Shown here piece by piece: positions 26,036 through 51,287 of a stretch of 64,000 nt of DNA. Source of the stretch: Heliomicrobium sp. (GTDB lineage: Bacteria; Acidobacteriota; Blastocatellia; RBC074); NCBI GenBank assembly GCA_021155085.1, contig JAJNQA010000021.1, positions 2,875-66,874 on the forward strand, read 5' to 3'. The position numbers and the translations under genes were made by a program. The notes below the pieces were generated by a model. That model made no database searches. It was not told the DNA's origin and was given only the letters and a program-made list of their open reading frames with translations. The number at the start of each line of letters is the position of its first letter. Position 1 is the stretch's first letter.

Positions 26036-26082
26036 TTTCAGATTCGAAGTTTTAGAGTTGAAGTTTCAGATTGCGGATTCGC

Positions 26083-27489
26083 TTATCCACCGAACCAGCC
26101 GCCGCCGCTGCGTCCATAGGAACCGGAACGTCCAGAGCGCGTTCCGGTCACGCGGCCATCGCTTCCCATGCGCACGCTGGTGCGCCCGAAACCGCTTGGC
26201 TTGGTTCTTCCGACACCGGTTGCTCCGGGGGATGTACCGACCCGAGAAGCGCTGAAAACCGTCGGACGTGATTGGGGTTGGTAACTGGGCGGCTGGAACG
26301 TCGGCCGCGAATTAATCGGCGGTGGCGGAAGGCTGCGCCCGCCGCCATATCCATAAACATAGCTTGGGCGGCTGTAATAATAGTGGTCGTAAAACCACCA
26401 ATGTGAAAACGGCGAGCCACCATAGTAATAATGCCGCACCACTGTTGATGAGGTATTGGTGGGCGAAGTCCCGGTCGCACCGCTGGTCGCTGTCAAAGGT
26501 TGATCGTAAGGTTTGAACTCGGACAACGGCAGCATGCGGACGTTAATGCCGTTTTTCTGCCATTCGACGAAATCTTCGTTGATATCGTCGAGTTCCTGCT
26601 TCTGCGTCTGGTCTTTGGTCAGGTAAATGACTTGCTGAATACCACGTTGTTTCAATTGATCAGCGGGAGGTAATTTGGCCAGATAACGATTGTCGAACTG
26701 CGTGTCCTGGTCGGCATAAGCCGCCAGACGATTCCCATCAAGCAACATCAATGCCGGCGAATTCTCCTTCAGCTTTGAGCGCTTCTCTTCTATTTCGTGA
26801 GCGTAATAGACCATCGCCCCCAGGGTTTCGTGCGCTCGCACCACGCCAAGCGGATGCGGATAATTGTCGAAGACAGGCACCAGAACCGCAGTATCCGCCA
26901 TGACTGCGCCAACGGCGATGGAAGCCGGTCCTGGCAAATCCGAAATGATCAATGTCTGATTGGCGTTGGCAGACGACGCGATCAATGTGCGCAACCCTTC
27001 GGCCCGGCTGTAAACATCAATCATCTCGTTCGTCCGTAGCGGTTTAATCTGGCTCCCGAGCGACGTTTGCGAAAGTGACTGTATCAGCGTCGGCACAAAG
27101 AACGGTTGCCAGCGAGAATCGCGCGGTTGGTAAATGGAGATTAGATAGTTTGGGTCATAGGCGCTCCAGGTTTTGCCCGCACTATCCGTTGCAGTCAGCC
27201 CTGCCGGAAAGACAAGCGATTTTTCGGTCGAGCCGACGTTCCATTCCTTGCGCTGCAATTCGAGCGAGTCAAGAGAGACTTCGGGCTCGTCATCCCCTGA
27301 CAGCTTGTAGACCGTCAATCCAGCCATGCCAAGCGCCGCCGTCCACATCAATCCCTTGCCAAGTTTGCGACGCGAAAGATGATTCGTAAACCATCCAGCG
27401 GGAGAATTATTCTGCGATGAATTTTTCATTAATGATCCTGCTTGGGCGGGCTCTTTCTTCCAGTATTTATTCGTGCGTTTCCTGGCCAT
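26083..27489 (-). CDS. Hypothetical exported protein with a possible Tat-type signal, an aromatic-rich segment and a Gly/Ser/Arg-rich C-terminal tail. An alternative start lies at 27429.
   Basis: SRRKLGKGLMWTAALGMAGL resembles a twin-arginine signal. The C-terminus reads HYYYGGSPFSHWWFYDHYYYSRPSYVYGYGGG...GRSGSYGRSGGGWFGG. Confidence 0.45.
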   Translation of the reverse strand: MARKRTNKYWKKEPAQAGSLMKNSSQNNSPAGWFTNHLSRRKLGKGLMWTAALGMAGLTVYKLSGDDEPEVSLDSLELQRKEWNVGSTEKSLVFPAGLTATDSAGKTWSAYDPNYLISIYQPRDSRWQPFFVPTLIQSLSQTSLGSQIKPLRTNEMIDVYSRAEGLRTLIASSANANQTLIISDLPGPASIAVGAVMADTAVLVPVFDNYPHPLGVVRAHETLGAMVYYAHEIEEKRSKLKENSPALMLLDGNRLAAYADQDTQFDNRYLAKLPPADQLKQRGIQQVIYLTKDQTQKQELDDINEDFVEWQKNGINVRMLPLSEFKPYDQPLTATSGATGTSPTNTSSTVVRHYYYGGSPFSHWWFYDHYYYSRPSYVYGYGGGRSLPPPPINSRPTFQPPSYQPQSRPTVFSASRVGTSPGATGVGRTKPSGFGRTSVRMGSDGRVTGTRSGRSGSYGRSGGGWFGG

Positions 27490-27509
27490 AATTTAAGCGA
27501 ATCTTTATA

Positions 27510-28955
27510 CTATTGACTGGTCACCGGTTCCAGAATGAAGTCATCCACGGTGAACACTTCTCCAGCCAGCGAGCGAAACCCGAAAGTGCCATAGAGAAAC
27601 TTTCCCTTTGTACTTCTTCCGTCCTCCCAAAACCCCAAGTCATCCTTCTGCCCGCTTATATTGGAAGTAATCCAATGTTGAATCTTGTGTCCGGTCACTT
27701 CCAGCGTAATCGTGTAGGAAGCCTCCTGATTCAATTCCGTCAAAATCGGGATGGGAGTGCCAACTTCTATAGGCTCCCTGCCATCTTCAACCAGATAAGT
27801 GTAAAAACGTTTCGGACCGTCCGGATGCGTGGAGTTCGGCCCCGCTAGGTGAAACAGGTAATAGTTGCGGCCTTCCTTATCGGCGCGTACTGCCCACGTC
27901 GCCCCTTTGCCATCATCCAGCCAGATAGTGAAGTTGATCTGCAGAATATCCCGGTACGTTTTATCTTTCAGCAATCCAAGCTGCGCCCCTTTCACCCGCA
28001 ACCGCTTGTTCCGCGCATCGCCCACCAATTCCCAGCTCGCTGGGAAACTCCATTGCGACAGCGTGCTGAAGAAATCCGTCCACCCCGCCGAAGTCACAAC
28101 CGGATCAAGTTTGACTGTAATCGTTCGCGGCCCTGGTGCCAGTATCTCTCTCCGCGACCAGGGCTGAAATCCCAATAGTTCAACCCCAATTGTTCGCTCG
28201 ACAGCGCGATCCAGTTCGTAATCTATTCTGACGGTTCCGTCATCCCTGATTTTCCCCTGCATCGCGCCATCAATCAGAACAGTCGCGCCAACTGGCCCTT
28301 GAACAGTCAACTTGGCAACTCGAGCCAGAGAGATTCGCCAATTGGCAATAGAAGTACCTGCTTCCAATCCCTTCAAGCTGTCCGTGTAATCGTTGTATTC
28401 AGGATGGCGAATCAGAAGTGAGTGGTCCCCTGGCTTCAAATCATTGATGCTAGCCATCCCGGTCTGGTCCGCTGTTGTCCTGGGCTGATCGTCAATAAAG
28501 ACCTCCGCTTTTGCCGGCAATCCACTCAACACAAGCGTAGCAAACTTCGGAGTCAATTTCAGCCGGATGATTTCACTTGTCTTTAGCGCCCTGGCTTTGC
28601 CCGAAGCATTTAGATAGCCAGGGAAACTCGCCTCGACCAGATAGGTTTTCCCCCGTGGCAACTGGATTTCAGCCTGGCCGTCTTTGTCCGCACTGAAATC
28701 TTCTATGATGCGCCCGGCGATGTCTTTGACCACGATCCGGCCATTGATCACAGGATCAAGAACGATAGCCAATACGCTTTTCGATGGCTGAGCGGGAATT
28801 GATTTAAAGACGACCCGCTCTGTCGAAGAACGCTCGCGCGGCTTTTCGACAGTATACTGACGCTGTGCAAATGCAACTTGTGATGGAAGGAAAAGCCAGA
28901 TGAAGGCCAAAGAGAAAATTGGACGAAACGGAATTGAGTGCTTGAGAGTGATCAT
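27510..28955 (-). CDS. Secreted protein with PEGA-like beta-sandwich repeats and a C-terminal DUF1080/concanavalin-like domain (tentative).
   Basis: Signal peptide IFSLAFIWLFLPSQVAFA. The C-terminus GTFGFRSLAGEVFTVDDFILE resembles the DUF1080 terminal motif. Confidence 0.45.
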   Translation of the reverse strand: MITLKHSIPFRPIFSLAFIWLFLPSQVAFAQRQYTVEKPRERSSTERVVFKSIPAQPSKSVLAIVLDPVINGRIVVKDIAGRIIEDFSADKDGQAEIQLPRGKTYLVEASFPGYLNASGKARALKTSEIIRLKLTPKFATLVLSGLPAKAEVFIDDQPRTTADQTGMASINDLKPGDHSLLIRHPEYNDYTDSLKGLEAGTSIANWRISLARVAKLTVQGPVGATVLIDGAMQGKIRDDGTVRIDYELDRAVERTIGVELLGFQPWSRREILAPGPRTITVKLDPVVTSAGWTDFFSTLSQWSFPASWELVGDARNKRLRVKGAQLGLLKDKTYRDILQINFTIWLDDGKGATWAVRADKEGRNYYLFHLAGPNSTHPDGPKRFYTYLVEDGREPIEVGTPIPILTELNQEASYTITLEVTGHKIQHWITSNISGQKDDLGFWEDGRSTKGKFLYGTFGFRSLAGEVFTVDDFILEPVTSQ

Positions 28956-28982
28956 CTTTGAAAACGCCAAAGTGTGATGAGA

Positions 28983-30887
<1,905 letters not shown>

Positions 30888-30955
30888 ATAATCCGGTTGC
30901 TGGTGACCGCCTGCAGATCAAGCGTGTTTCTAAATCCGCAAGCGATCAGCAGCAA

Positions 30956-31732
30956 TCATTTCGTCGGCCGTTTGAAGTTCAACACACAATCCTGATCACG
31001 CAAACTGACCGTCAGCGTAAAATTTCCAATGCGCAGTCGGTCCCCATCACTTAACTCTGCCAAACTCACCCGCTCTTCATTCAAATGGGTACCATTAGCG
31101 CTATCGAGATCGCAGACAAAATATTTCCCGCCATGCCGCTCAATCGCCACATGATTCCTGGAGATATTATCCCCATCAAGCACAACTTGGTTGTCAGTTC
31201 GGCGGCCGATCGTTATCCGTTCTTCGCCAAACGGTTGTGTAACACCTTCTTCCAGCCCCTTGATGACAATATGCGGATTCAACTCAATCACAGGTGGCAA
31301 ATGATGAGGCATCGTCTCACGACTTTTTAGTCCCCCGGTTCCCACCGAGGATGTGAGATGAACAAACAGGATGTTATGGCCGATGCGAAGCTGATCGCCA
31401 TCTTGTAACTGCGCCTGCTGTACGCGCTGACCATTGATGAATGTCCCGTTGCGGCTGAAATCGTGCAGGAGATAAACGACCCCGAGGCGAACAATTTCGC
31501 AGTGTAATCTGGACACCGTTTCCCCATCCAACACGACATCACAATTTTCTCCACGGCCTAATGAGGTGTGATGTTTGGTCAAAAATAGGTCGGTCCGCCC
31601 AGCACACAAACCACCAACAAAGCTTAAACAAAGCTTGCTAGCAGGAGAACTGGTTGTTGATCGCCCTCTGTCCAGTCTGATGGAAAAAGCAGATTCAAAC
31701 TGACGGGTAAAATCGTGTTCCTGGCCGATCAC
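30956..31732 (-). CDS. Protein containing two FHA domains.
   Basis: Two FHA cores are present: GRGENCDVVL...VSRLHCEI...NGTFING and IGRRTDNQVVL...ISRNHVAI...NGTHLN. Lies immediately upstream of the kinase. Confidence 0.8.
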   Translation of the reverse strand: MIGQEHDFTRQFESAFSIRLDRGRSTTSSPASKLCLSFVGGLCAGRTDLFLTKHHTSLGRGENCDVVLDGETVSRLHCEIVRLGVVYLLHDFSRNGTFINGQRVQQAQLQDGDQLRIGHNILFVHLTSSVGTGGLKSRETMPHHLPPVIELNPHIVIKGLEEGVTQPFGEERITIGRRTDNQVVLDGDNISRNHVAIERHGGKYFVCDLDSANGTHLNEERVSLAELSDGDRLRIGNFTLTVSLRDQDCVLNFKRPTK

Positions 31733-35266: not shown

Positions 35267-36490
35267 ATGGCAGAGTTTACTTGCAGACTGGGAACCCCCG
35301 CAGGCGAGATTGTGACACGTACCGTTGAAGGTCTGTCCGAGCAAGAACTACGTCTGCGCCTCTCCCAGGAAGGTTATCGAATTTTCTCAGTCGAAACTGC
35401 TGGCGCGATTGCCGGCATGCGAATTCGGAGCGGCAAACAACGTTCTGTTAAGATCAAACTTGACGACTTTCTTCTCTTCAATCAGCAGTTGGCGGCGCTC
35501 TTCCATGCTGGATTGCCGGTCCTACAATCCATTCAGATGTTGCGTCAGCGCTCACCGAATGCGAAACTGCGATCTATTCTGGCCGATGTAGAAGCGCGAA
35601 TTAAATCCGGCAGCGCACTTTCAGAGGCTTTCGCGGCGCAAGGCGAAACCTTTCCGAAGATTTATACCGCCTCGATCCTTGCGGGTGAACGTTCCGGCAA
35701 TCTCGACGAAGTGTTGCGCCGATATGTTGAATTCACAAAATCAATTGCGCAACTCCGGCGAAAGATCCGCGGTGCTCTTACCTATCCGGTTATGCTGCTT
35801 TGTGCAGCGGTAGTGTTGATCATTGTGTTGACGACTTTCGTCATTCCGCAGTTCTCGTCACTTTATGAAAATATGGGCGCTGATTTGCCAAAGATTACAG
35901 TTTTTGTCGTCGGTTTTTCATCGGCAGTACGCGAAAACATCTTCTGGCTTGCACCAGCATTAGTCGGTTTTATCGCCGCAATTATTTCTTGGCGTCGGAC
36001 TGAGAATGGACGACGCACGATGGATCGCTGGATACTAAAGGTTCCGATCATTGGCGAATTGATCAGGCAGATGACGACAGCGCAATTTTCCCGCAGCATG
36101 GCAACGTTGTTGGCAGGTGGCATTACCGTAGTCGAGTCATTCCAAATTGCTCTTGCTTCCGTAGCGAACAGGGAGTTGCTGCGTTCGACCGAACCGGCGC
36201 TCCCCAAAGTCCGTGAGGGCAAGCCATTCACTGAAAGTCTGGCGGAAGCTGGATGGGTTCCTGAATTGGCAACTGATATGATTGGTGTAGGCGAACGCTC
36301 TGGGTCGCTGCGAGAGATGCTGGATGAAGTATCTGGCTTTTACGACGCGGAGACTGAAGTCAAACTTGGCCAGTTGACCAGTTTGATTGAGCCAGCCATC
36401 CTGTTTTTAATGGCTGGAGTTGTAATCACGATTCTTCTGGCAATTTACCTGCCGCTATTGCAAATGGTCAGCAAGGCAGGAGCAGCATAA
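35267..36490 (+). CDS. gspF: Type II secretion system F / type IV pilus PilC-family inner-membrane platform protein.
   Basis: GspF/PilC-like over 407 aa with two T2SSF repeats and three TM segments (e.g. LTYPVMLLCAAVVLIIVLTTFVIPQF). Confidence 0.85.
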   Translation: MAEFTCRLGTPAGEIVTRTVEGLSEQELRLRLSQEGYRIFSVETAGAIAGMRIRSGKQRSVKIKLDDFLLFNQQLAALFHAGLPVLQSIQMLRQRSPNAKLRSILADVEARIKSGSALSEAFAAQGETFPKIYTASILAGERSGNLDEVLRRYVEFTKSIAQLRRKIRGALTYPVMLLCAAVVLIIVLTTFVIPQFSSLYENMGADLPKITVFVVGFSSAVRENIFWLAPALVGFIAAIISWRRTENGRRTMDRWILKVPIIGELIRQMTTAQFSRSMATLLAGGITVVESFQIALASVANRELLRSTEPALPKVREGKPFTESLAEAGWVPELATDMIGVGERSGSLREMLDEVSGFYDAETEVKLGQLTSLIEPAILFLMAGVVITILLAIYLPLLQMVSKAGAA

Positions 36491-36518: not shown

Positions 36519-38162
36519 ATGGCAACTGCAGCAGACCAAATCAATTCACTCTCTTCAACACCGGGGCAGGCGTCGGAACGCGAAATAGCAGAACGTGTTG
36601 CCCGGCGCTACAGGCTTAACTTTATCCCTCTCGAAAGTCATCCAGTTGATTACAATCTTGTGCAGTCACTGCCAGTGGACCTGATGCTGCGGAACAAATT
36701 CGTTCCGCTTCGCCGCGAAAACGGTCATATGGTCATCGCCATGGCGGATCCGTCGGATCTGATGCTGCTTGACGAGTTGAAAGCGCAGCTTCGGATTCCG
36801 CTTAAAGTCGAAGTCGCCACTGCAAGCGCGATCGAAGCCGTGTTGCGCAAAGGCGATGCTTCCCAGCGCGTGCTGCAGGAAGCAACTGAAGGCTTCCGCG
36901 CAGCGTTGGTCAAGGAAACAGAAAATGGTGAAGAGGTTCTTGATCTTGACCGCTTGTCTGGTGACAGCGAGATGTCGCCAATCATCAAGCTGGTGGATAC
37001 GATTGTCTTCACCGCTCTGGAAAAACGCGCCTCCGATATTCATATGGAGACTCGTGATTCAGACATGGTTGTGCGCTATCGAATCGATGGCGCACTTTAT
37101 GAAGCTGGCGACCCGATTGACATACGCCATCACCAAACGATCATCTCTCGTATCAAGGTCATGTCGGAACTAGACATCGCTGAGCGGCGCGTCCCGCAGG
37201 ACGGGCGTTTCCGCATGCGGATCAGAGGGCGCAATGTGGATTTTCGCGTTTCGATCATCCCAACTGCGCACGGCGAAGATGCGGTCATTCGTATTCTCGA
37301 CAAGGAACAGATTAATGAATCGTTCAAAGACTTGCGCCTGGAGGTTGTCGGCTTTGATCCGGTCCTGCTCGCGAAATTCCGCCGCTTTATTCTGGAGCCC
37401 TATGGAATGGTGCTGGTAACTGGTCCAACCGGTTCAGGTAAAACGACGACCCTTTATGCAGCGCTCAACGAAATTCGCAACGACGAGGACAAGATCATCA
37501 CAATTGAAGACCCGGTCGAATACCAACTTCGTGGTGTTGCACAGATCGCAGTCAATGAGAAAAAAGGACTGACTTTCGCGCGCGGCTTGCGCTCAATTCT
37601 GCGCCACGATCCAGACAAGATCATGGTCGGCGAAATCCGCGACAATGAGACCGCGCAAATTGCCATCAACTCGGCGCTCACGGGTCACTTGGTTTTCACG
37701 ACCGTCCACGCCAACAATGTGATTGACGTGATCGGGCGATTCATCAATATGGGTGTCGAACCCTACAATTTCGTCTCCGCGCTGAACTGCGTGCTGGCGC
37801 AGCGTCTGGTTCGCGTTATCTGCCCGCGTTGTCGTGAAAAATACCAGCCGACGGATGCCGATTTGATTGAAGCGGGTCTGACGCCATCAAAATTCAAAGA
37901 CCGAATTTATTACAAGAGCGTCGGCTGCGAAGCGTGCAACCATACGGGTTATCGCGGCCGGACCGCAATCCATGAACTACTGGATATGTCCGACACCATC
38001 CGGGAACTGATTATTGCGCGAAAACCAGGCTCTGAAGTCCGCCGTACCGCGATTCAGGAAGGCTTGGGCAGTTTGCGCGCATCTGCTTTACGGCTGGTAT
38101 TTGAAGGTCAAACAACGTTACACGAAATCAACCGGGTGACCTTCGTCGAAGAGATGCAGTAG
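36519..38162 (+). CDS. gspE: Type II secretion/type IV pilus assembly ATPase (GspE/PilB family).
   Basis: Walker A GPTGSGKTTT is present. A tetracysteine motif CPRC...CEAC is present. The N1 domain has FVPL...MADP. Confidence 0.9.
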   Translation: MATAADQINSLSSTPGQASEREIAERVARRYRLNFIPLESHPVDYNLVQSLPVDLMLRNKFVPLRRENGHMVIAMADPSDLMLLDELKAQLRIPLKVEVATASAIEAVLRKGDASQRVLQEATEGFRAALVKETENGEEVLDLDRLSGDSEMSPIIKLVDTIVFTALEKRASDIHMETRDSDMVVRYRIDGALYEAGDPIDIRHHQTIISRIKVMSELDIAERRVPQDGRFRMRIRGRNVDFRVSIIPTAHGEDAVIRILDKEQINESFKDLRLEVVGFDPVLLAKFRRFILEPYGMVLVTGPTGSGKTTTLYAALNEIRNDEDKIITIEDPVEYQLRGVAQIAVNEKKGLTFARGLRSILRHDPDKIMVGEIRDNETAQIAINSALTGHLVFTTVHANNVIDVIGRFINMGVEPYNFVSALNCVLAQRLVRVICPRCREKYQPTDADLIEAGLTPSKFKDRIYYKSVGCEACNHTGYRGRTAIHELLDMSDTIRELIIARKPGSEVRRTAIQEGLGSLRASALRLVFEGQTTLHEINRVTFVEEMQ

Positions 38163-38434: not shown

Positions 38435-41400
38435 ATGAACACAAACATCACGATTCGCAGATTTCTCGCCTTGTTCCTGACACTGTGTCTAATCTTGCCG
38501 GGAACTGCTCTGGCCGGCGGCGGTAAGGGCAAAAAGAATTTCAACGAGGGGAAAAAATACGAAAACGCACAGCAATGGGACATGGCCGCACAAGCTTACG
38601 CGTTGGCAGTTTCGGCTGAGCCGGACAATCCGGAATATCGGCTTCATTACATGCGCGCGTTGCAGCAGGCGTCGTTGATGTACGTCAAACGTGGCGATGC
38701 GCTCGCCGAACAAAATGATTATCCGGGCGCTTACACCGCCTACCGTTCGGCGTTTAATTATGATCAGGGCAACGAAGTTGCGCGAATCAAGATGGAGCGG
38801 ATGCTCGACCAGCAAAAGGCATTGGCCAACGGGCTGGAGCCAGTCGCTTATACGAATTCCGGCAATGTCAAACCGACCAGCGATCTGCAAATTTCGACCA
38901 AGCCGCGCAATCGTGACCTTCTGCAAAACGTTGAATTCAAAGACGCAAGCTTCAAATCGGTCGTCAAAAATCTCGGCAAACAATTGGGGCTGAACGTACT
39001 GTTCGATGATCAGGTCAAAGACGACAAAGTCACCGTGGATATGAATGATGTGACTTTGGCCAAGGCGATGGACAATATCCTGTTCATGAAGAAATACACT
39101 TTCGAGCAGATGGATCGCCGCACCATCATCGTGTATCAGGACAATCCAACCAACAAGCCGCGCTTCGAAAAACTGATGGTCAAGGCCTTCTATTTGGGCA
39201 ACATCAATGCCACACAGGCGCGCGGCGTCATCACATTGGCGCTCGGCGCGGCCCGGCAAGTTCAGCCACTGGATCAGGCTGCCGGCGGCCCAGGCGGCGG
39301 TGCGGGTGGCAGCGGTGGCGGCAATATCATTCTGGTCAAAGCCACACCGCAGGAATTGCAGGTCGTCCAGCAAATCCTGGAGATGGTTGACAAGAACAAG
39401 AATGAAGTTGTGCTCGACGTGGATATTTATGAAGTCTCGCACGACAGCATGCTGAAAATTGGCAATCAGATCGCGACTTCCCCGGTGCAAGTGGATGCGC
39501 TTGAGTACGTGGATAAAGAAACCGGCAAGCCATACTATCGGCAAACGCCGACGTCCTCGCTGGGAAATTTTGGTGGATTGGGACAGGCAAACGCTTTGGC
39601 GGGAACCGTCAATCTTCTTGGTGGCGCAGGCAGCTTTCTGGGAATGGGCGCGTTGATTGGCTTGCCGCCGACGACGTTGTCGCTGCTGCAATCAAAGGGC
39701 AATTCGAAGCTGTTGAATAAGACTCAAATTCACGTCCTCGATGGCCAATCAAACACCACCAAGGTCGGCAAAAGCGTGCCGGTACGTCTTGGCACCCAGT
39801 ATGGTTTTAACGGTGGTTTTGGTGGTGGCTCCCAACTTGGGGGAGGTCTTAATGGCGCAGTCAACGGCGCAGTGAATGGAGCTCTTGGCAACCAGTTCGG
39901 TGGATTTGGTGGATTGGGCAGCGGTATTGACTCGATTCAATATCGTGACGTCGGCCTCGTCATCGAAGCGACGCCTACCATCACTAACGAAGGTTACGTC
40001 GAAGTAAAGATGAAATTCGAGACTTCGGACGTCGCGGCTTCAGGCAGCACGAGCGAATTAACGCCGACCTTTACACAACGATCCATGCAAACCGTCGCAC
40101 GCATCAAAGATGGTGTGACATCCGTGGTTGCGGGAGTTAACCAACAGAACAAAGGCGATTCACGCGCGACCATTCCAATCATCGGGATGGTCCCAATTCT
40201 CGGACGCCTGTTCACGACTCCCAATCAGACATCCGCCCAGACCGATTTGATTATTACTGTCACGCCGCACATCGTCCGGTCTGCGGGGATTACACAAAAG
40301 GATTACCTGGCGGTCTACACCGGCGGCAACAGTACTGCCGGTGGCAGCTTGCCGCCGAGCGTGGAAGACGTCGTATACCGCGCGCAGCAGGAAGAAGAAC
40401 AGGAACGCCGGTTGATCGCGATGAATTCGCCGACGCCGCAAAGCATCCCATTGACTGCTGACAGCCAACCGGCAACCACGCAATTGGCAGGCAATCAACA
40501 ATCACAATTGGAGCAGCCAAGACAGCCGGCTGTGCAACCGGTCAACAACACGAATACCGGCGCGCCTGCGGTTCGTACTTTCGGTAACAATAATCTGGCG
40601 CCGATTTCCACTTCGAGCACATTATCGTCAGGGGCTCCGGTCGTTCAGCAAACGCCCCAGCAATTTGAGCAGAGCAATCCCACCGAGATTCCGCCAACAG
40701 AAATTGCGCTGGCAGGCAACAAAGAAGGCCCGATGAAAGATGGGGAGATGAGAGAAGGCGAGGTGATCAAGCCCGAAAATCCGGTCCCGATCGCAACGGT
40801 ATCCTTTGGACAGGATAGTGAAGAACGCCAGAAAAAGATGACTCTGATCCGGCAGCAATATGCAGATGAGCAGAAAAGGCTGGAACAGGAAGCCAAAGCC
40901 AACGCAAAATCAAAACGGGTGGAGTCAGCCCCCGCGCCGATGCCTGAAGGGATGACCGGACCAAAAACCAAAGTTCCACTGGCTGTTCCTGCCATGGGGG
41001 CTGCCCGAGGCAATGTGGGCTTCACGCTCTCGGCGCCAAATCGTCAGCAGGTTGGCAAGACTTTCAGCGTCTCGGTCGAAACAAACGGCCAGGGTCAGAT
41101 ATTTGGTGCAAGTATTGCCCTTCGTTTCGACGAATCCAAGCTGAAAATTAAATCCGTCCGAGGCGGAGAACTCTTCGGCGAACACCCGGAGTTGAGCCAC
41201 AGCATTGAAAAAGGTATCTTGAAGGCGTCCATCAAGAACCAGCAGAAATCGGGGGTTTCGGCCAGCGGGCGGGTGTTTGTGATCGAATTTTCCGCGATTT
41301 CCGAAGGCTCAACTGAAATCGGATTCAACAATGCTGACACGAAGGTCAATATATCCAGTACAACAGTCGTTGGAGCCAACGGACGGGCGGCGCAAGTCGT

Positions 41401-41443
41401 CATCAGCCGTGACGCTGTCGCAAGTTCAACCAATGAAAGATAA
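38435..41443 (+). CDS. gspD: Secretin (GspD/PilQ family) with an N-terminal TPR-like region and a C-terminal Gln/Pro-rich linker plus cohesin-like beta-sandwich domain.
   Basis: ATG at 38435 follows GAGAAGG and opens a signal peptide. The secretin core has VLDGQSNTTKVGKSVPV, IEATPTITNEGYVEVKMKFETSDV and IPIIGMVPILGRLFTTPNQTSAQTDLIITVTPHIV. After ~300 aa of low complexity, the C-terminus VGFTLSAPNRQQVGKTFSVSVETNGQGQIFGASIALRFDESKLKIKSVRGGELFG...GRVFVIEFSAISEGSTEIGF looks cohesin-like. Confidence 0.85.
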   Translation: MNTNITIRRFLALFLTLCLILPGTALAGGGKGKKNFNEGKKYENAQQWDMAAQAYALAVSAEPDNPEYRLHYMRALQQASLMYVKRGDALAEQNDYPGAYTAYRSAFNYDQGNEVARIKMERMLDQQKALANGLEPVAYTNSGNVKPTSDLQISTKPRNRDLLQNVEFKDASFKSVVKNLGKQLGLNVLFDDQVKDDKVTVDMNDVTLAKAMDNILFMKKYTFEQMDRRTIIVYQDNPTNKPRFEKLMVKAFYLGNINATQARGVITLALGAARQVQPLDQAAGGPGGGAGGSGGGNIILVKATPQELQVVQQILEMVDKNKNEVVLDVDIYEVSHDSMLKIGNQIATSPVQVDALEYVDKETGKPYYRQTPTSSLGNFGGLGQANALAGTVNLLGGAGSFLGMGALIGLPPTTLSLLQSKGNSKLLNKTQIHVLDGQSNTTKVGKSVPVRLGTQYGFNGGFGGGSQLGGGLNGAVNGAVNGALGNQFGGFGGLGSGIDSIQYRDVGLVIEATPTITNEGYVEVKMKFETSDVAASGSTSELTPTFTQRSMQTVARIKDGVTSVVAGVNQQNKGDSRATIPIIGMVPILGRLFTTPNQTSAQTDLIITVTPHIVRSAGITQKDYLAVYTGGNSTAGGSLPPSVEDVVYRAQQEEEQERRLIAMNSPTPQSIPLTADSQPATTQLAGNQQSQLEQPRQPAVQPVNNTNTGAPAVRTFGNNNLAPISTSSTLSSGAPVVQQTPQQFEQSNPTEIPPTEIALAGNKEGPMKDGEMREGEVIKPENPVPIATVSFGQDSEERQKKMTLIRQQYADEQKRLEQEAKANAKSKRVESAPAPMPEGMTGPKTKVPLAVPAMGAARGNVGFTLSAPNRQQVGKTFSVSVETNGQGQIFGASIALRFDESKLKIKSVRGGELFGEHPELSHSIEKGILKASIKNQQKSGVSASGRVFVIEFSAISEGSTEIGFNNADTKVNISSTTVVGANGRAAQVVISRDAVASSTNER

Positions 41444-41984
41444 GAAAAATCATCGGTTCATGCTCAACAATCGGTGGCTGGCAAATGCTGGCCACCGATT
41501 GTTGAATGGCAGCAAACCAGATCGCGAATCCGGTTTTACGCTGCTTGAATTGATCATTACATTGACGGTCATCGCCATTCTGGCGGCGGGCACGGTTCCG
41601 GTCGTTCACAATATGATTCGGCGCCAGAAAGAACTGGAACTACGCCGCAACCTTCGTGAGATTCGTCAGGCAATTGATGCCTACCAGGCCAGTTGCGTCA
41701 AGGGAGAGGCCGGATTCGACAAGGAAACCGATGACTGTTATCCGCCGAGTTTGGAGGCCATGGTCAAAGGCTTCAACCCGCCTGGCAAGGTCAACGAAAC
41801 CAAGCGTTTTCTGCGCCGCGTTCCGCTTGATCCCTTCACCCAAAACACGCAATGGGGCATGCGTTCGATGGAAGACGATCCATATTCGACAGGTGGCGGA
41901 CCGGGTGGCAAAAACGGCATTTTTGACGTTTACACCACTGCTCAGGGAAAAGCGCTTGATGGTTCGGACTACAGCAAATGGTAA
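41433..41984 (+). CDS. GspG-like pseudopilin/pilin 1 (prepilin N-terminal domain) with an unusually long leader.
   Basis: Contains ...RESGFTLLELIITLTVIAILAAG (G|FTLLE with Glu at +5) and the GspG-like EIRQAIDAY. About 36 aa precede the predicted cleavage site if the ATG at 41433 is used. Overlaps the secretin stop by 11 nt. Confidence 0.6.
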   Translation: MKDKKNHRFMLNNRWLANAGHRLLNGSKPDRESGFTLLELIITLTVIAILAAGTVPVVHNMIRRQKELELRRNLREIRQAIDAYQASCVKGEAGFDKETDDCYPPSLEAMVKGFNPPGKVNETKRFLRRVPLDPFTQNTQWGMRSMEDDPYSTGGGPGGKNGIFDVYTTAQGKALDGSDYSKW

Positions 41985-42529
41985 AGAAAGCCGGAAAAAT
42001 AGCAGTAAAGAGTGATGTGCAATCGAGATTGACAGCCAGATCACGGTTTGTCGAATCAGGGTTCACTTTGCTTGAACTAATCATCACCTTGACGATTCTT
42101 TCCATCTTGTCATTCGGAACCATTCCCATCGCCCGTAATGTCATCAGACACGAAAAGGAGTTGGAGTTAAAACGCACATTACGGGAAATGCGCAAGGCGA
42201 TTGATATGTATCACCGGGACTGCGCAGACCGAGGACTAATCGGCACTCTGGACCGCAAAATCAATGATGGCTGCTATCCGTTGACGTTGGAAGTCCTGGT
42301 TGAAGGCATTCCCAAGGCAGCGCCAGGAGGAATCAGCGCTTCCGGCGAAATGCTTCGCTATCTGAGACGGATTCCAAAAGATCCCATCACCGGGCGGGAC
42401 GACTGGAAATTTCGCTCGGTGCAGGACGAACCGGATTCAGAATCCTGGGGCGGAGAGAACGTCTACAATGTTTACAGTAACTCCCAGCAGATGGCGCTCG
42501 ACGGAAAGACCTACTACAAAGATTGGTAA
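41978..42529 (+). CDS. GspG-like pseudopilin/pilin 2, with a long leader.
   Basis: Contains ...FVESGFTLLELIITLTILSIL and LREMRKAIDMY. About 26 aa precede the predicted cleavage site. Confidence 0.6.
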   Translation: MVKKAGKIAVKSDVQSRLTARSRFVESGFTLLELIITLTILSILSFGTIPIARNVIRHEKELELKRTLREMRKAIDMYHRDCADRGLIGTLDRKINDGCYPLTLEVLVEGIPKAAPGGISASGEMLRYLRRIPKDPITGRDDWKFRSVQDEPDSESWGGENVYNVYSNSQQMALDGKTYYKDW

Positions 42530-42531
42530 TT

Positions 42532-42975
42532 ATGAAGTCAAAGTCTCAAAAATCTTTTTTCAGTTCTGACGCTTCGCACGAAGGGTTTCGAGCGCGGGTT
42601 CAACGCGGCTTCACATTCATGGAGTTGCTAATTGTGATGGTTATCATCGCAATTTTGGCTGCGGTGGCGATTCCGAAATATCTGGCCCATCTTCGCCGCG
42701 CAAAAGAGGTGGTGTTACGGCAGGACTTGTGGGCGATGCGCCGCGCGATTGACTTTTACTCAACAGATAAGGAGCAGCCTCCGTCTGGTCTTGAAGAGTT
42801 GGTCAGTGCAGGTTATTTGCGCGAGCTTCCGAAAGACCCAATGTGCCCTGACGACTGTCAATGGGTGACTGTCCCCGCCCAGACAGATAGTCTCAGCGCT
42901 GCTGGCGGCATCGGCGATGTGAAAAGCAGCGCACCAGGCAATGACTCAAACGGAGTTCCCTATTCAGAGTATTAA
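42532..42975 (+). CDS. GspG-like major pseudopilin/pilin 3.
   Basis: Contains ...RARVQRGFTFMELLIVMVIIAILAAVAIPKY and LRQDLWAMRRAIDFY. About 25 aa precede the predicted cleavage site. Confidence 0.65.
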   Translation: MKSKSQKSFFSSDASHEGFRARVQRGFTFMELLIVMVIIAILAAVAIPKYLAHLRRAKEVVLRQDLWAMRRAIDFYSTDKEQPPSGLEELVSAGYLRELPKDPMCPDDCQWVTVPAQTDSLSAAGGIGDVKSSAPGNDSNGVPYSEY

Positions 42976-43017
42976 GGCTCGTCATTGTTTTCCCTGGTTA
43001 TCAAGGGATCGTTATTT

Positions 43018-43971
43018 ATGAAACAACTTCCTATCTTATCCGGCCTCTGGAATTATCTGACTGCGCCCGATCTTCCCCGCACCGCACTGGCTATCAGCGA
43101 AACTCACCTGTCCATTGTCTCGCTACGACGCAGCAAAGGCGAGTTTGAGCCGCGCAACCTGGGCGTGCTGCGCTTGCCGGAAGGTTTAGTGCGCTCAAGC
43201 TTCACAGACACAAATATCTCAGATGAATCATCCCTGATGGAGCATCTGACCAGAACGGCAGCTCAGGCAGGACTCAGTCGTCCACGAAATTTAAGTGTTG
43301 CCCTGCCTTCAGGAAGTGCTCGCAGTCAGGTCATCTCGCTCGACACCATGCCCAATTCGCGCAGTGAAGTGGCAGAGTTGATCGAATGGAAGATCGAGCG
43401 CAGTTTCGGCCAGAAATTCAGCGACTTGCGGGCTAGTTACACCCGGCTGAGCGATTTTAACGGCCGGCCGCATTGGCTGGTGACCGCTGTTCATTCGCGA
43501 GTGCTGGGACAATACGAACGCATTTTCAAGGAATTAAGCTGGTCAGTCGGAATGATCGCGCCCCAGAATCTGGGAGAAGCGCAGTGGTTAATGCGGCAGA
43601 AGCTTGAAGACGATCAGGTCATCGTTAGTTTGAACGAACGCGGTTTCGATACAGTCATTGTACGTGGCACGGAACCGATTCTGGTGCGCGAAGTGGAATG
43701 CCCTCCGGAAGAACGCGAGGATGAATTTTACCGTCTTCTTATCTTCTACCGGGATCGTTTGTTGCCCGAAAATGCGCCGATCACACTCAATCGCGTGCTG
43801 ACGTTGGGAACACCCGCTGACCAGCGGCGTTTCCGCGAAGTGTTGGTGTCCGCACTGGAAAATCATGCGGTTGCACTGGACCCGCAGCAAATCGGTCTGA
43901 AAATCGAGCCCAACGCGCCATTCAACCATTTTGCCGCCTCAAGCGGATTGGCAACGATGGCGTGGGGTTAA
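43018..43971 (+). CDS. Putative PilM/GspL-like cytoplasmic assembly component (tentative).
   Basis: 317-aa soluble protein encoded directly after the pseudopilins. It has no signal peptide and only weak actin-like/PilM-like features, so the call rests mainly on position. Confidence 0.35.
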   Translation: MKQLPILSGLWNYLTAPDLPRTALAISETHLSIVSLRRSKGEFEPRNLGVLRLPEGLVRSSFTDTNISDESSLMEHLTRTAAQAGLSRPRNLSVALPSGSARSQVISLDTMPNSRSEVAELIEWKIERSFGQKFSDLRASYTRLSDFNGRPHWLVTAVHSRVLGQYERIFKELSWSVGMIAPQNLGEAQWLMRQKLEDDQVIVSLNERGFDTVIVRGTEPILVREVECPPEEREDEFYRLLIFYRDRLLPENAPITLNRVLTLGTPADQRRFREVLVSALENHAVALDPQQIGLKIEPNAPFNHFAASSGLATMAWG

Positions 43972-44205
43972 TCGGACAAAACTCGACGATTTTCCATCTC
44001 CTCACGTACCCAAGCTGTTACCCACTATTCGGTTTTCTGGGCAGAGATACGGTATACTCCACTGCCCTTCGTAACAGGCTTGGGCTGTATGTTGTCCCGG
44101 ATCGCAAAGCTTCACCACAAATTCATCATATCCAAAGACTGAAAGGAAGATATTTTCGGATGGCTGTCAGGCTCAGAGCTTGACGGTACAATCGGAAGGA
44201 TGATT

Positions 44206-44952
44206 ATGGATTCACGCACGAAACATTATTCTCTGACAAAATTTTCAATCACAGCGATTTCACTCTTCGCAATATTACTCCTTGCTGCATGCGGCAAGGA
44301 GTCGGTGGTTTCGGACAATTCCGGTCAGAACGCCGCCAGCAATTCGTCACCGGCTTCGGCCAATCCTGGCGCATCACCGCAAGCAGTTTCAACTCCGGGC
44401 GCATCGCCAGCGACTGCCCAAACAACTCCTGTGGGTCCGGTGGGACAGACCACGCCAAATTCTCCATTTGAAGCCCAACCTGGCGAAAAGAAACAAATGA
44501 TGGGAAATATTCCTGTCACGGTCGGGCCGGCGAAGCCAGCCTTGACGCCTGCGCCTGATCCATTTCCGCCGCGCCCAGCACCCGCCGTGACGACTCAAAA
44601 TGGCAAGGTTGTGCAGCAATGGCAAGCTCCAGCGGAAGCTGCCGGTCTTACCAGCCCGGTTAAAAATCGCCCGGATGCCGCAGCTCTTGGACGAGAATTC
44701 TACATGCAAAAATGTGTTGACTGTCACGGCAAGGAAGGCAAAGGCAATGGATACATGTCAGCTCAAACCAAACGTGACGGGAAACCACTCCCTCCAACCA
44801 ATCTGGCAAGTCAGATGGTGCAGGCCAATACGGACGGCGAACTGTTCTGGAAAATCACCAATGGCAAATCGCCTATGCCTGCGCACCGTGTCCGATTTGA
44901 AGACGAGCAACGCTGGTATATTGTCGCCTACCTGCGCACATTCAAACCGTAA
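44206..44952 (+). CDS. Lipoprotein with a C-terminal class I cytochrome c domain.
   Basis: Lipobox LLAAC, a Pro/Ala-rich linker, the heme motif CVDCH and a distal Met (GKSPMPAH). GGAAGG sits 6 nt upstream of the ATG at 44206. Confidence 0.65.
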   Translation: MDSRTKHYSLTKFSITAISLFAILLLAACGKESVVSDNSGQNAASNSSPASANPGASPQAVSTPGASPATAQTTPVGPVGQTTPNSPFEAQPGEKKQMMGNIPVTVGPAKPALTPAPDPFPPRPAPAVTTQNGKVVQQWQAPAEAAGLTSPVKNRPDAAALGREFYMQKCVDCHGKEGKGNGYMSAQTKRDGKPLPPTNLASQMVQANTDGELFWKITNGKSPMPAHRVRFEDEQRWYIVAYLRTFKP

Positions 44953-45169
44953 CGATTTCCAGATAGAGTTAAAATTGTAAGAAAGGCAAAGGAAACTTAT
45001 GGTTAGAGCAGAAACCCGACAGGTCTTTTTCAATTCCACGGAATCTAAATCGGGTATCAGCGCGTAGATTACGTCAAAGACCGCTGACGAAAAAGCTGAT
45101 TCATGACCTTGAACGCACTCTATTCAGCACGTTTTTTTGAGGGAAAATTATTGGAGCTTTAGCTTTTGT

Positions 45170-45934
45170 ATGACGTGGGAAGAAGTGAAAGAACTTGGAC
45201 CTTTTTATGTGCTGGGAGCGCTTGATGCGGAAACAGCGCTGAAGGTTGAAGATTTTCTACGTCACGCAACAAAAGACCAGCAGAACGAAGTGACCGAATG
45301 GCGCGAGGTCGCAGCCTTGTTGCCAATGAGTTTGCCACAAACCGCGGCTCCGCCTTTTCTCAAAGAACGCTTGCTCGTCCGGATCGCCGGGGAGGGAGCG
45401 GCCCCCTATTCAATTCAGTCGGGTTCTTCTGCCAAAGTATTACGATTCCAGCCCCAGCCGCGCGAGCCGAAACAAACGTCTCATTGGCTGGCGATGGCAG
45501 CGGCAATCTTGCTGGCATTCACCACCACTTTTCTAGCCTGGAAAAACTCCCAGCTTTCCACTCAGCTCAACCTGGCAGAGGGACAAGTCAGGGAATTCCT
45601 CTCCTCTGACACACAAATCATCTCGCTCTCCGGCGTTGAAGCGCCTGAAGCAAATGCAAAGGTGATTTGGAATAAAAAAAGCCAGAAGTGGAAAGTCTAC
45701 GTTTTCAATCTGCCTCTCCAGTCGAACGATAAAGATTATCAGCTCTGGTACGTGACCAAAGACGCCAAGATCAATGCCAAGGTTTTCAGCCCCAACGCAC
45801 AGGGCAACGCCGAATTGGATCTATCCCTCCCCCCTGAAGCTCTTCAGGGGCTTGCCGCTACCGCCGTCACCCTTGAACCCAAAGGCGGATCATCACAACC
45901 CACGGGTAAATTCTACCTTGCGGCGGAAATTTGA
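45170..45934 (+). CDS. Anti-sigma factor (RskA-like), with no adjacent sigma factor gene.
   Basis: N-terminus MTWEEVKELGPFYVLGALDAETALKVEDFL, a central TM segment WLAMAAAILLAFTTTFLAW, and an extracytoplasmic C-terminal domain. Confidence 0.5.
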   Translation: MTWEEVKELGPFYVLGALDAETALKVEDFLRHATKDQQNEVTEWREVAALLPMSLPQTAAPPFLKERLLVRIAGEGAAPYSIQSGSSAKVLRFQPQPREPKQTSHWLAMAAAILLAFTTTFLAWKNSQLSTQLNLAEGQVREFLSSDTQIISLSGVEAPEANAKVIWNKKSQKWKVYVFNLPLQSNDKDYQLWYVTKDAKINAKVFSPNAQGNAELDLSLPPEALQGLAATAVTLEPKGGSSQPTGKFYLAAEI

Positions 45935-48216: not shown

Positions 48217-48329
48217 CCCCGCCGATGCGGTTGTCGCGAGTTCAGAACGAACTTTAGCCCCTTCATCAATCACCCCCGCGCCGCAACGGTGATTCAGTGC
48301 CCCAGTCGAATGAAACAATCAGGTTGATC

Positions 48330-51287
48330 ATGACTAAGCAATTCCCTATGCACGCACGGGCCGGAACTTCAGCCTTGTTGATCGGCTTACTAACCTGGCT
48401 GGGTGTTTTCGGTGTGCTGATGCAATCATCTTGGCGATCAGTTCAGCCGGCGTCCGGCGCCCAACCCAAGCTCCCAATTCCAACAGTTCAGTTACAGGTG
48501 AAAGAAGCGCTAAACAAGTTGCCGCTCAGCTTTGAAGCGAATCGCGGGCAAACAGACAAGACAGTTCAATATATTTCGCGCGGGACGAACTACACGGTCT
48601 ATTTGTCTTCAGCGGAGGCCCGGTTCGAATTGCCTGGCCCCCCCAACAGACACACGGCGTTCAACCTGCAACTGGCCGGAGCCTGCTTCAACGGGCCGAT
48701 TGAAGGCTTGGATCCCTTGCCCGCCCGCAGCAATTACTTCATTGGCAACAATCCGGATGAATGGCAGACCGATGTCCCAAGCTTTGCCCGCGTGCGGCAA
48801 CAAAATGTCTACCCCGGCATTGACGTCATTTTTTACGGCAACCGGCAACAGCTTGAATATGATTTCGTTGTCGCGCCGCATGCCAATCCGCAACAGATCA
48901 AACTGGCGTTCAAGGGCGCGCCCCGAATCGAACTGGATGGCAAGGGTGATTTACTGATTAATGCCGGCATCTCGGATCAGGCGTCTGATCGGCAAATGCT
49001 GATGCACAAGCCGGTGATTTATCAGGAAACCAATGGGCAGAGACAGGTGGTTGAAGGCGGCTTTACGATTGATGAATCGCAAACAGTTGGTTTTGAACTG
49101 GGTGATTATGACGCCAGTCTGCCGCTGGTGATTGATCCGGTTGTTGATTATGCGACCTATGCGGGCGGCAGCGGGACCGACATCGGTTACAGCATCGCGG
49201 TTGACCAACAGGGTTACGTCTATATCACCGGTCAAACCTCCTCGCTGAATTTTCCGACCAAAAGCGCCTTTGCCACCACGCTCAATGGCGCGAACGATGC
49301 GTTTGTGATGAAGCTCAGCCAGAATGGATCGAGCGTCATCTTTTCGACTTTCATCGGCGGGCGCAATCCAGGGGACAAAGGTTCGGCGATCACCGTGGAC
49401 AAAGCCGGCAACATCTACTTCGCGGGTGAAACGAATTCGCTCAACTTTCCGACCGCCAACGCTGCATTTCCAACCTTTCGCGGCAACATTGACGCCTTCA
49501 TCGCCAAATTCAATATTGATGGCAACGTACTGATCTATTCGACCTACTTTGGCGGAACTTTTTTCGATGGAGCTTATGACATCGCACTCGACCGATTCGA
49601 CAATGCCTATGTCACGGGCCGCACTTCATCAATTAACCTGCCAATGAAAAATGCGCTGCAACCCGCACTGAACGGCCAGCAAGATGCGTTCGTGACGAAA
49701 TTCGATCCTGACGGCGCGCTGCTTTATTCCACCTACCTTGGAGGCGGGCTTTCACCGGGCGCGAGCCGTGATGACGAGGCTGGCTACAGCATCGCCGTTG
49801 ATTCGCAGCAGAATGTTTATGTCACCGGCTTCACTTCCTCATCCAGTTTTCCCACGGTCAATGCGTTCCAAAACACTTTCGGCGGCGTCGAGGATGCTTT
49901 TTTGACCAAGATCAATGCGGCGGGATCGGCATTGATCTATTCGACGTTTCTGGGTGGAGACCGCGCTGAAGAAGCAAGCGCGATTGCGGTGGATGCGCTC
50001 GGCAATGCGTATGTCACCGGCTACACCTTCTCGATTGATTTCCCGATTACGGCGACCGCGCTGCAAAGGCTCTACGGCGGCAATGTGGATGCCTTCGTCA
50101 CGAAGTTCAACGCCACAGGCTCGGCGCTGCTCTATTCCACTTTTCTAGGCGGCAATGGGGCGGAAAACACCGGGCTGGTGTCAGACAATCTGCCGGTCGG
50201 CGGCATAGTGGTTGACAATCTGGGGTACGCTTATGTGACGGGAAAAACCGAATCGGCGAACTTTCCCGTCGTGCGGGCGCTGCAACCTTCCCTGCGCGGC
50301 GATGGCGATGCGTTTATCGCGAAGATTGATCCGGCCGGAACGGAACTGGTCTATTCCACCTATCTGGGAAGCAGTTTCACCGGCAACAATGGCTTCGATG
50401 AACGCGGCTTGGACCTGACACTGGACAAGGCGGGAAGTATTTATGTTACCGGCCAGGTGTTGAAAGACGATTTTTCAACCGTCGCGCCGATGCAGATGAA
50501 TTTCGGCGGCGGGCTGAGTGACGCTTTCGTGACGAAAATTTCATCGCCGGACATTGTCACCATCGCCGCGGTTTCCGCCGCCAGCTTCGTGGGCGCGTCG
50601 CTGGCCCCCGAAGAAATCACCGCCGTTTTCGGCACGAATCTGGCCAGCGGAGCCGAGCTTGCCCAAACGGTACCGCTGCCCACTTCCCTGCTCGGCGCCA
50701 GCGTCAAAGTCAAAGACAGCGCCGGCGTGGAACGTCCGGCCGGGCTGTTTTTTGTCTCGCCCGGCCAGATCAATTTTCAAATCCCTTCCGGCACCGCCCT
50801 GGGCAAAGCGACAATCACCGCGACCAACGCCCAAGCTGTTTCGATGAGCACATCGGTTTTGATCGAAAAAACCGCGCCGGGCTTGTTTGCCGCCAACGCC
50901 AACGGCCAGGGCGTTGCCGCGGCGGTATTGGTTCGGGTCAAGCCCGACAGTTCACAAATCTTCGAGCCGGTCATCCAACTCAATAATCAAAACCAATTCG
51001 TTCCCGCCCCGATTGATTTCGGCCCCGACCTGGGAAATGCCAGCGACCAACTCTTTCTGATTCTGTTCGGCACAGGCTGGCGAGGCCGCAGCGTGCTGGA
51101 CAAAGTCCGGGCGCAGATCGCCGACATCCCGGTCCCCGTGCTTTACGCCGGAGCACAAGGAGATTTCATCGGCGAGGACCAAATCAATCTGCAATTGCCG
51201 CGCGCTTTGGCCGGACGCGGCGAGGTAAACATCTCAATTACCGTGGATGGACAAATCGTCAATCTGGTGACAGTGGCGTTTCGGTAG
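48330..51287 (+). CDS. Secreted SBBP beta-propeller repeat protein with an Acidobacteria-type TIGR03437 C-terminal domain.
   Basis: Signal/[19 protein letters not shown]. There are at least eight repeats of the form GGxxxDxGxxIAVDxxGNxYVTGxTxSxNFP...DAFVTK. The C-terminal ~250 aa ([24 protein letters not shown]...[23 protein letters not shown]) matches the Solibacter-type terminal domain. Confidence 0.75.

Follow-up and report, generated by a model that had tools for sequence, protein, structure and literature searches.

A conserved secretin–cohesin fusion in a type II secretion system-like operon of Blastocatellia

We analysed a 64-kb stretch of DNA (64,000 nucleotides of contig JAJNQA010000021.1; hereafter, the window) from an uncultured soil-type Blastocatellia acidobacterium. 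On a single strand, the window carries a compact gene cluster encoding, in order, GspF, GspE, a secretin, three GspG-like proteins and a PilM-like protein. The subject of this study is the secretin, a protein of 1002 amino acids (aa) that ends in a cohesin domain. It begins with a signal peptide and helices resembling tetratricopeptide repeats (TPR); N0- and N1-like domains then lead into the secretin core, after which come an S-domain-like helix, a linker predicted to be disordered and the cohesin (Table 1).

Table 1. Features of the secretin–cohesin gene and its operon. Coordinates are those of the window and residue numbers those of the encoded protein; pLDDT, predicted local distance difference test; PDB, Protein Data Bank.
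Feature	Coordinates	Strand	Basis
Whole gene, TPR-secretin-cohesin protein, 1002 aa	38435..41443	+	sequence, Pfam, homologues
Signal peptide, residues 1-27, probable signal peptidase I site ALA/GGG	38435..38515	+	read from sequence, family consensus
TPR-like helical region, residues 36-131, four helices	38540..38827	+	sub-threshold TPR_2, TraC-like match 16-131, model
N0/STN-like domain, residues 164-235	38924..39139	+	STN sub-threshold, weak GspD N0, model secondary structure
Secretin_N (N1/N3-type) domain, residues 248-322, Gly-rich insertion 281-294	39176..39400	+	sub-threshold Pfam, model
Secretin core (outer and inner barrel, Gly-rich gate loops), residues 324-615, ends ITVTPHIVR	39404..40279	+	Pfam, NCBIfam, PDB alignment, fold
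S-domain-like segment, residues 616-664, GITQKDY similar to GspD GITQRKY, then conserved acidic helix 643-664	40280..40426	+	alignment, family consensus, model
Variable low-complexity linker, residues 665-859, mostly pLDDT <50	40427..41011	+	composition, conservation, model
Charged helix inside linker, residues 796-824, pLDDT ~86	40820..40906	+	model
Cohesin domain, residues 860-992, nine main strands, beta-sandwich	41012..41410	+	Pfam, profile, model, Foldseek
C-terminal tail …RDAVASSTNER, kept in most clades, not all	41411..41440	+	alignment
GspF/PilC-type platform protein	35267..36490	+	profile matches
GspE/PilB-type ATPase with MshEN domain	36519..38162	+	profile matches
GspG-like pseudopilin 1, start uncertain (ATG 41433 or 41460)	41460..41984	+	profile matches
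GspG-like pseudopilin 2	41978..42529	+	profile matches
GspG-like pseudopilin 3	42523..42975	+	profile matches
PilM/GspL-like protein, weak match, syntenic in 52 loci	42985..43971	+	profile match, neighbour table
o376, signal-peptide beta-rich protein, 376 aa	33608..34738	+	neighbour table, family searches

The start codon of the secretin gene, ATG 38435, is preceded by a sequence resembling a ribosome-binding site (aaagagaagg). The mechanically called open reading frame (ORF) opens upstream at an alternative codon, TTG 38399; the ATG agrees with a database protein (P0001, 99% identity, 1002 aa) and with the N-terminal consensus of the family. The reading frame is unbroken across the gene, up to the stop codon at 41441-41443. 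An earlier annotation made from the letters of the window, the sequence-only reading, had delimited this ORF and quoted peptides from it; the ORF, its coordinates and the peptides were all present in the sequence. The signal peptide does not contain a lipobox, because C18 is not conserved in the family.

Both sequence and fold identify the C-terminal module as a cohesin, far beyond chance. According to Pfam, residues 864-966 match Cohesin (PF00963) with 37.2 bits against a gathering threshold of 24.1 (E 4.1e-9). A search of the PDB with the single C-terminal sequence returned only noise, so a profile search was needed, for which we used a profile of the C-terminal family built from 24 diverse members. 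Down to E ~0.6, this profile matched solely cohesins in the PDB, including a ScaB cohesin (3l8q, 9e-8) and a type I cohesin of C. acetobutylicum (6kg8, positions 6-136, 5.6e-4). An AlphaFold model of residues 855-1002 contained nine main strands and had a pLDDT of 91.5 and a predicted template modelling score of 0.84. When the PDB was searched with Foldseek, the top 34 matches were all cohesins, with template modelling (TM) scores of 0.70-0.82 and root-mean-square deviations of 2.1-3.1 Å, the leading ones being the non-cellulosomal cohesins of C. perfringens (2jh2, 2vo8) and Archaeoglobus fulgidus (2xdh). Profile searches and structure prediction thus bear out the proposal of the sequence-only reading that the protein ends in a cohesin-like β-sandwich. 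The domain is compact: its best target-normalised TM scores were to non-cellulosomal and type I cohesins of 133-143 residues. The best sequence-profile match was to the type II ScaB cohesins and covered the N-terminal strands only.

The most conserved polar residues of the cohesin (E882, K906, R946 and E951) appear to map to the sheet opposite the canonical dockerin face, as judged from strand alternation rather than from coordinates. At the extreme C-terminus, most clades of the family keep a sequence of the form …ISRDxVxSxxNE[KR]; one large clade ends bluntly in …QVTIGRD. Binding of this tail (…SxxNE[KR]-COOH) by the N-terminal TPR-like region, in the style of EEVD motifs, was considered and rejected as a general mechanism, because the …QVTIGRD clade is without the tail and keeps both the TPR-like region and the cohesin.

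The secretin core matched Secretin (PF00263) with 102.7 bits against a gathering threshold of 27.5 (E 2.2e-29), and secretins in the PDB were matched at E 1e-14. The best PDB folds for the full-length model (pLDDT 63) were PulD (6hcg) and GspD (5zdh), followed by the secretins of type III secretion systems (T3SS) and type IV pili (T4P) and then, through the tail, by cohesins. The identification of the protein as a secretin whose conserved C-domain ends in ITVTPHIV, also made in the earlier annotation, therefore holds. Among the NCBIfam models, GspD ranked first, ahead of PilQ, MshL and HofQ, with every score far under the cut-off of its own model. More specifically, the GspD equivalog TIGR02517 scored 146.1 bits versus a cut-off of 351.35 in a partial match to residues 293-618, and PilQ (TIGR02515) scored 102.1 versus 284.35 bits. 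Neither equivalog assignment is thus supported. Pfam detected no AMIN domain in the window secretin. Overall, the secretin is more GspD-like than PilQ-like.

Upstream of the core, STN/N0 scored 25.0 bits versus a Pfam cut-off of 28.4 (residues 186-235) and Secretin_N scored 22.3 versus 28.2 (residues 249-322), both narrowly under threshold; homologues pass, many of them for Secretin_N. The model shows the β-α-β-β-α units expected of N0 and N-domains. The sequence-only reading had also noted a TPR-like stretch at the N-terminus. The helices are there: residues 36-131 form four confident ones in the full-length model (pLDDT 80-90), the NCBIfam TraC-like match extends over residues 16-131, TPR matches are on record for many homologues, and no other part of the protein is as conserved (identity ~0.75 along the family alignment). 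In the window protein itself, however, TPR_2 scored 19.1 bits versus a Pfam cut-off of 27 (E 1.3e-3, residues 36-74) and TPR_14 scored 16.9 versus 23.5. We therefore describe the region as TPR-like.

The segment that follows the barrel, …LIITVTPHIVRSAGITQKDY, aligns with …IKPTIIRDGMTADGITQRKY of GspD, where the S-domain begins. The alignment does not go past the first part of that domain; one conserved helix (residues 643-664) follows, and across the family the stretch is conserved as …EDVVxRAQxEEEQERRLIA. The spacer between barrel and cohesin is ~245 residues long (617-860), of which ~200 form the disordered linker, with disorder predicted for residues 664-793 and 827-858 in the full-length model. 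Its composition is 10% Pro, 10% Ala, 9% Gln, 8% Glu and 7% Thr, and two helices are confidently predicted within it, the conserved S-domain-like one and a second at residues 796-824. The long, low-complexity linker described in the sequence-only reading is thus present, but it is shorter than the ~300 residues given there, only moderately rich in Pro and Gln, and interrupted by helices. Across the family, the linker varies in sequence and in length, from 80 to 283 aa, the shortest (80-95 residues) occurring in one clade. No amphipathic β-strand, transmembrane segment or other membrane-crossing element was predicted in this polar, disordered linker.

The fusion is conserved. Database searches identified more than 100 full-length relatives of 43-99% identity, nearly all matching both PF00263 and PF00963; the cohesin was present in 117 of 120 homologues. 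The named relatives come from metagenome-assembled genomes (MAGs) of Acidobacteriota/Blastocatellia. The 79 loci retrieved by a scan of species-representative genomes all belong to Acidobacteriota MAGs, and the best 80 include no cultured isolate. In the family alignment, the TPR-like region (~75% identity), the secretin core and the post-barrel segment are conserved, the cohesin is ~50% identical and the linker is variable. A conserved cohesin on a variable linker is the pattern that a tether plus functional module would give. Many MAG records with a Blastocatellia-type operon (L004, L009, L012, L013, L016, L017 and others) bear the title 'uncultured Heliomicrobium sp.' or 'Heliobacteriaceae bacterium'; these Bacillota titles look like a taxonomic labelling error.

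Tabulation of the neighbouring genes across 82 loci resolved three locus types. The first, with the full operon as in the window, accounts for ~58 of the 82 loci and is flanked by genes for a divergent Ser/Thr kinase-FGE-sulfatase, a double-FHA protein, o376, a lipoprotein cytochrome c and an RskA-type anti-sigma factor. The second (L061-L066, L069-L071 and L076; e.g. L070 9479-12472) encodes a paralogue with the order AMIN-TPR-Secretin_N-Secretin-Cohesin. It has no T2SS (type II secretion system) genes beside it; its neighbours encode Wzy_C, a GT4 glycosyltransferase and two or three large GSDH-PKD-PA14 proteins (GSDH-PKD-Big_7-PA14), and judging from these the locus could serve the export of an exopolymer or of surface proteins. 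The third (L037, L043, L046, L054, L055, L057 and L058) encodes a cohesin-less paralogue of ~770 aa that matches residues 8-752 of the query and adjoins a histidine kinase and response regulator and PD40/DUF7948-type propeller or TonB-type proteins. The window's own DUF7948-SBBP-TIG protein (996 aa, 48297-51287) belongs to this last neighbour family. One relative (L083) is split into two ORFs, AMIN-TPR and secretin; an AMIN domain also occurs at L084. With the cohesin on two secretin paralogues and kept across Blastocatellia, the fusion is unlikely to be accidental.

To place the cohesin among its relatives, a word-index search with the C-terminal domain alone, which yielded two fragments, was replaced by an exhaustive profile search of 1.84 billion representatives. 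This search identified 4841 proteins with this type of cohesin. Among the top 150 representatives, 29 are secretin fusions, and every full-length one has a TPR region. The others are mostly multi-cohesin, scaffoldin-like proteins, one with a type IX secretion system (T9SS) tail and one haloarchaeal; 15 scaffoldin-like relatives carry dockerin repeats, such as P0123 with nine cohesins and Dockerin_1. That the nearest non-secretin relatives are scaffoldin-like proteins bearing Dockerin_1 supports a docking function.

The secretin operon departs from a canonical T2SS operon, which comprises GspC-M: it encodes just GspE, GspF, three GspG-like proteins and one weakly matching PilM-like protein. The three GspG-like proteins carry prepilin-type G/FTLLE sites. 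Within the operon, we found no GspC, GspL or GspM of recognisable signature, no minor pseudopilins H-K, and no pilotin, prepilin peptidase or GspAB-type anchor; PilN/O/P and PilT genes are likewise absent from it. Each component scores slightly higher as T2SS than as T4P, with the ATPase and the platform protein nearly equal against PilB and PilC. From these profile scores, the machine is best called T2SS-like, a member of the type IV filament superfamily of uncertain class.

Several genes recur around the operon. The protein o376, which has no Pfam, NCBIfam or PDB match, is encoded just ahead of GspF in 29 related loci. It is a candidate for either a cargo or an accessory role. It was rejected as an obligatory partner, being missing from many operons that keep the cohesin. 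Downstream, at window positions 44200-44952 (+), lies a gene for a lipoprotein with the lipobox LLLAAC, a ~120-aa linker rich in Pro, Ala, Ser, Thr and Gln, and a mono-haem c-type cytochrome domain (CVDCH); a cytochrome c lipoprotein directly follows the PilM-like gene in 43 of the 82 related loci. The lipoprotein cytochromes of Shewanella require the T2SS and, by analogy, this one could be a cargo of the present system. Divergent from the operon (window 28983-31732, -) are genes for a Ser/Thr kinase fused to an FGE-sulfatase and for a double-FHA (Yop-YscD_cpl-like) protein. Both are kept with the operon in ~30 loci, which suggests possible phospho-regulation of the secretion machine.

An RskA_C-type anti-sigma factor (window 45137-45934, +) is encoded downstream of the operon in 39 loci, including the distant L001 and L002; no sigma-factor gene is adjacent to it. 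Upstream, genes for DUF1517 and two uncharacterised proteins of ~470-540 aa (window 25208-28970, -) recur at the distant L002 (2353-6268). The conserved neighbourhood may thus extend beyond the T2SS genes. Further away, at 12409-20295 (-), the window encodes a giant 2628-aa protein with 10 Big_3_5, 6 He_PIG and FG-GAP repeats. This stretch has a GC content of 0.63-0.65 versus ~0.52 for most of the window, and the protein may be an acquired adhesin-like one.

We then searched for a dockerin-like partner, as the sequence-only reading had recommended. Strict and loose scans for paired Ca-loop repeats, which covered the 64-kb window and 1.34 Mb of sequence surrounding the 82 related loci, found none. 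Applied to 144 cohesin relatives, the same regular expression picked out dockerins in 15; the negative outcome therefore carries weight for these neighbourhoods, although not for the rest of the genomes. A nearby canonical dockerin partner was thus rejected for the window and the 82 loci. A five-sequence dockerin profile run against a protein database matched short fragments (from Poribacteria, Chloroflexi, Ruminococcus and others), none of them named Acidobacteriota, and was uninformative for this lineage.

The sequence-only reading placed the cohesin on the extracellular face of the outer membrane. By analogy with characterised secretins, we consider it probably periplasmic, the topology that the earlier annotation had named as contrary to its own proposal. 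In the T2SS, the S-domain lies on the exterior of the barrel in the periplasm, where it is bound by the pilotin, a periplasmic Lol-sorted lipoprotein, with 1:1 stoichiometry and C15 symmetry (PMC6532946; PMC6882859). The pilotin-binding helix, α-12 of the S-domain, carries an Ala-Phe signature (PMC6532946). Moreover, C-terminal tags on GspD of enterotoxigenic Escherichia coli, EpsD of V. cholerae and EscC of enteropathogenic E. coli gave no surface signal in flow cytometry (PMC4453517). A periplasmic tail would follow because the post-barrel segment of the window protein aligns with the start of this pilotin-binding domain, the C-termini of such secretins are not detected at the surface, and the linker has no element that could cross the membrane. 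A linker of 80-95 residues would, by our estimate, not reach around the periplasmic rings and then up the lumen.

These considerations lead to a proposal to which we give an even chance: that the protein is the outer-membrane secretin of a compact T2SS-like machine, and that tethered periplasmic cohesins bind a specific partner at the channel. The secretin would assemble as a channel of 12-15 subunits, like other secretins. The C-terminal chain of each subunit would leave at the position of the S-domain, on the outer wall of the barrel, just under the outer membrane and on its periplasmic side. A disordered linker of 80-283 residues would let each cohesin sweep ~10 nm or more around the channel, and the result would be a crown of ~15 tethered docking modules per channel. 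By binding a specific protein, the cohesins would concentrate it at the secretin. Candidate partners are a cargo protein not yet exported, a lipoprotein of pilotin-like or envelope-anchoring type, and a platform component; the last would replace the functions of GspC and the pilotin that are missing from the operon. We favour a capture or docking arm because a conserved module sits on a variable tether, because two paralogues carry it, and because GspC and pilotin genes are lacking; location, stoichiometry and binding are what we infer from this anatomy and its conservation. The boldest form of the idea, in which cohesin docking is integral to the secretin and ~15 tethered modules per channel recognise a dockerin-like or new tag on cargo or on an assembly factor, or alternatively a surface tail retains the secretin's own cargo, seems improbable in its entirety.

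Several observations weigh against periplasmic docking, and two alternatives were considered. The first alternative is that the cohesin acts without a dockerin, its sandwich serving as a self-associating collar, as a substitute for the pilotin or a peptidoglycan anchor, or as a glycan-binding module for an exopolymer. We regard this as conceivable but doubtful. It would account for the failure to find dockerins in the window and at the 82 loci; nevertheless, sequence and fold place the domain among dockerin-binding cohesins rather than among carbohydrate-binding modules. It would also suit the finding that the outward residues of the putative dockerin-binding sheet are less conserved than the opposite sheet, which holds E882, K906, R946 and E951, although this rough mapping was made without coordinates and cohesin–dockerin interfaces are lineage-specific. 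The missing pilotin, GspC and GspAB-type anchors leave room for a substitute; against this, a cohesin-less paralogue exists and presumably still assembles, and a long, variable, disordered tether suits a capture arm better than a fixed collar. As for glycans, one cohesin-bearing paralogue lies among Wzy_C, GT4 and PA14/PKD proteins and the secretion of slime by cyanobacteria and myxobacteria needs T2SS secretins (PMC12475490), but the main operon has no glycan genes.

The second alternative, which we consider unlikely, is that the cohesin is exposed outside the cell, where it would hold secreted proteins, dockerin-tagged or otherwise, or the filament, beside the exit channel. To our knowledge, all characterised cohesins act outside the cell, and a periplasmic one would be unprecedented; related cohesins also occur in scaffoldin-like proteins that bear dockerins or a T9SS sorting tail and are surface or secreted proteins. 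Dockerin genes, however, were found near none of the 82 loci. Surface exposure keeps some probability because flow cytometry did reveal the C-terminal tags of two T4P secretins, BfpB and PilQ, at the surface (PMC4453517), and a cryo-EM study of PilQ leaves the exposure of secretin residues unsettled (PMC7545093). One cohesin-bearing paralogue moreover has a PilQ-like AMIN domain. By contrast, the window secretin scores higher as GspD than as PilQ and retains an S-domain-like segment, and the C-termini of T2S and T3S secretins bind periplasmic pilotins and are not detected at the surface (PMC6532946; PMC6882859; PMC4453517). The polar linker, which has no amphipathic β-strand or transmembrane element and in one clade seems too short for the route through the lumen, argues in the same direction.

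An artefact (misassembly, a frameshift joining two genes, or chance similarity to cohesins) is effectively refuted: the reading frame of the gene is continuous, its Pfam scores are above threshold, the fold match is confident, and more than 100 independent assemblies, made with several pipelines, repeat the architecture at the same length. Nothing specific speaks for an artefact; the split ORFs of L083 indicate that gene boundaries vary in the family.

The pairing of the two domains is already visible in automated annotation, which names relatives "cohesin domain-containing protein" (NCBI) or "general secretion pathway protein D" (JGI). No paper describing such a fusion was found in the literature on secretins with cohesin or dockerin; the survey of non-cellulosomal cohesins by Peer et al. 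(2009) lies outside that scope. Nor is there a solved secretin with such a domain among the PDB matches to the cohesin profile at E <0.6, which are cellulosomal or other non-secretin proteins. Recognition of T2SS cargo and pilotin-free targeting and assembly of secretins are long-standing questions, and a tethered docking module would give a handle on both. The recombinant 15-kDa cohesin could be used as bait for its partner, and its location is amenable to simple accessibility assays. The architecture is conserved across Blastocatellia, a large, ecologically abundant and almost uncharacterised class. If the cohesin is periplasmic, cohesin biology would extend to a new compartment, a first for cohesins; if it docks partners there, a T2SS-like machine would gain a modular, sequence-addressable recruitment step. 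If it is instead at the surface, this would be the first secretin to carry a folded C-terminal domain outside the cell and to retain its own cargo there, and the accepted topology would need revision.

Of the known systems, the T2SS secretins GspD, PulD and EpsD (5zdh, 6hcg, 6i1y) give the best matches in sequence and fold. They share with the window protein the secretin core, the N0/N-domain-like rings, neighbouring genes of the GspE, GspF and GspG types, and an extension past the barrel, which in the T2SS is a periplasmic protein-binding handle. The window protein differs in its score (146 versus 351 bits), in its added N-terminal TPR-like domain, and in an S-domain reduced to one conserved helix, which is followed by the linker of 80-283 aa and a folded cohesin; its operon is without pilotin, GspC and GspH-M genes. 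With PilQ of type IVa pili, the family shares the secretin core, the AMIN domain of the cohesin-bearing paralogue, and an ATPase and platform protein with near-equal PilB and PilC scores. The window protein, however, has no AMIN domain and scores 102 versus 284 bits, its operon is without PilN/O/P and PilT, and in PilQ nothing comes behind the final strand of the barrel.

A TPR module working with an outer-membrane channel is also known from TPR helpers and TPR-porin exporters, namely TadD-RcpA, the pilotins PilF, PilW and Tgl, and AlgK/AlgE-type systems (PMC10499894; AlgK is cited in PMC12475490). Unlike these, the TPR-like region of the window protein is fused to the N-terminus of the secretin and is not a lipoprotein. 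Finally, the C-terminal domain shares with non-cellulosomal (2jh2/2vo8; 2xdh) and cellulosomal type I and type II cohesins a nine-stranded sandwich of ~135 residues. It differs from known cohesins in sequence, with only 10-18% identity, and in its setting: it is fused to the outer-membrane channel of a diderm bacterium and is probably periplasmic.

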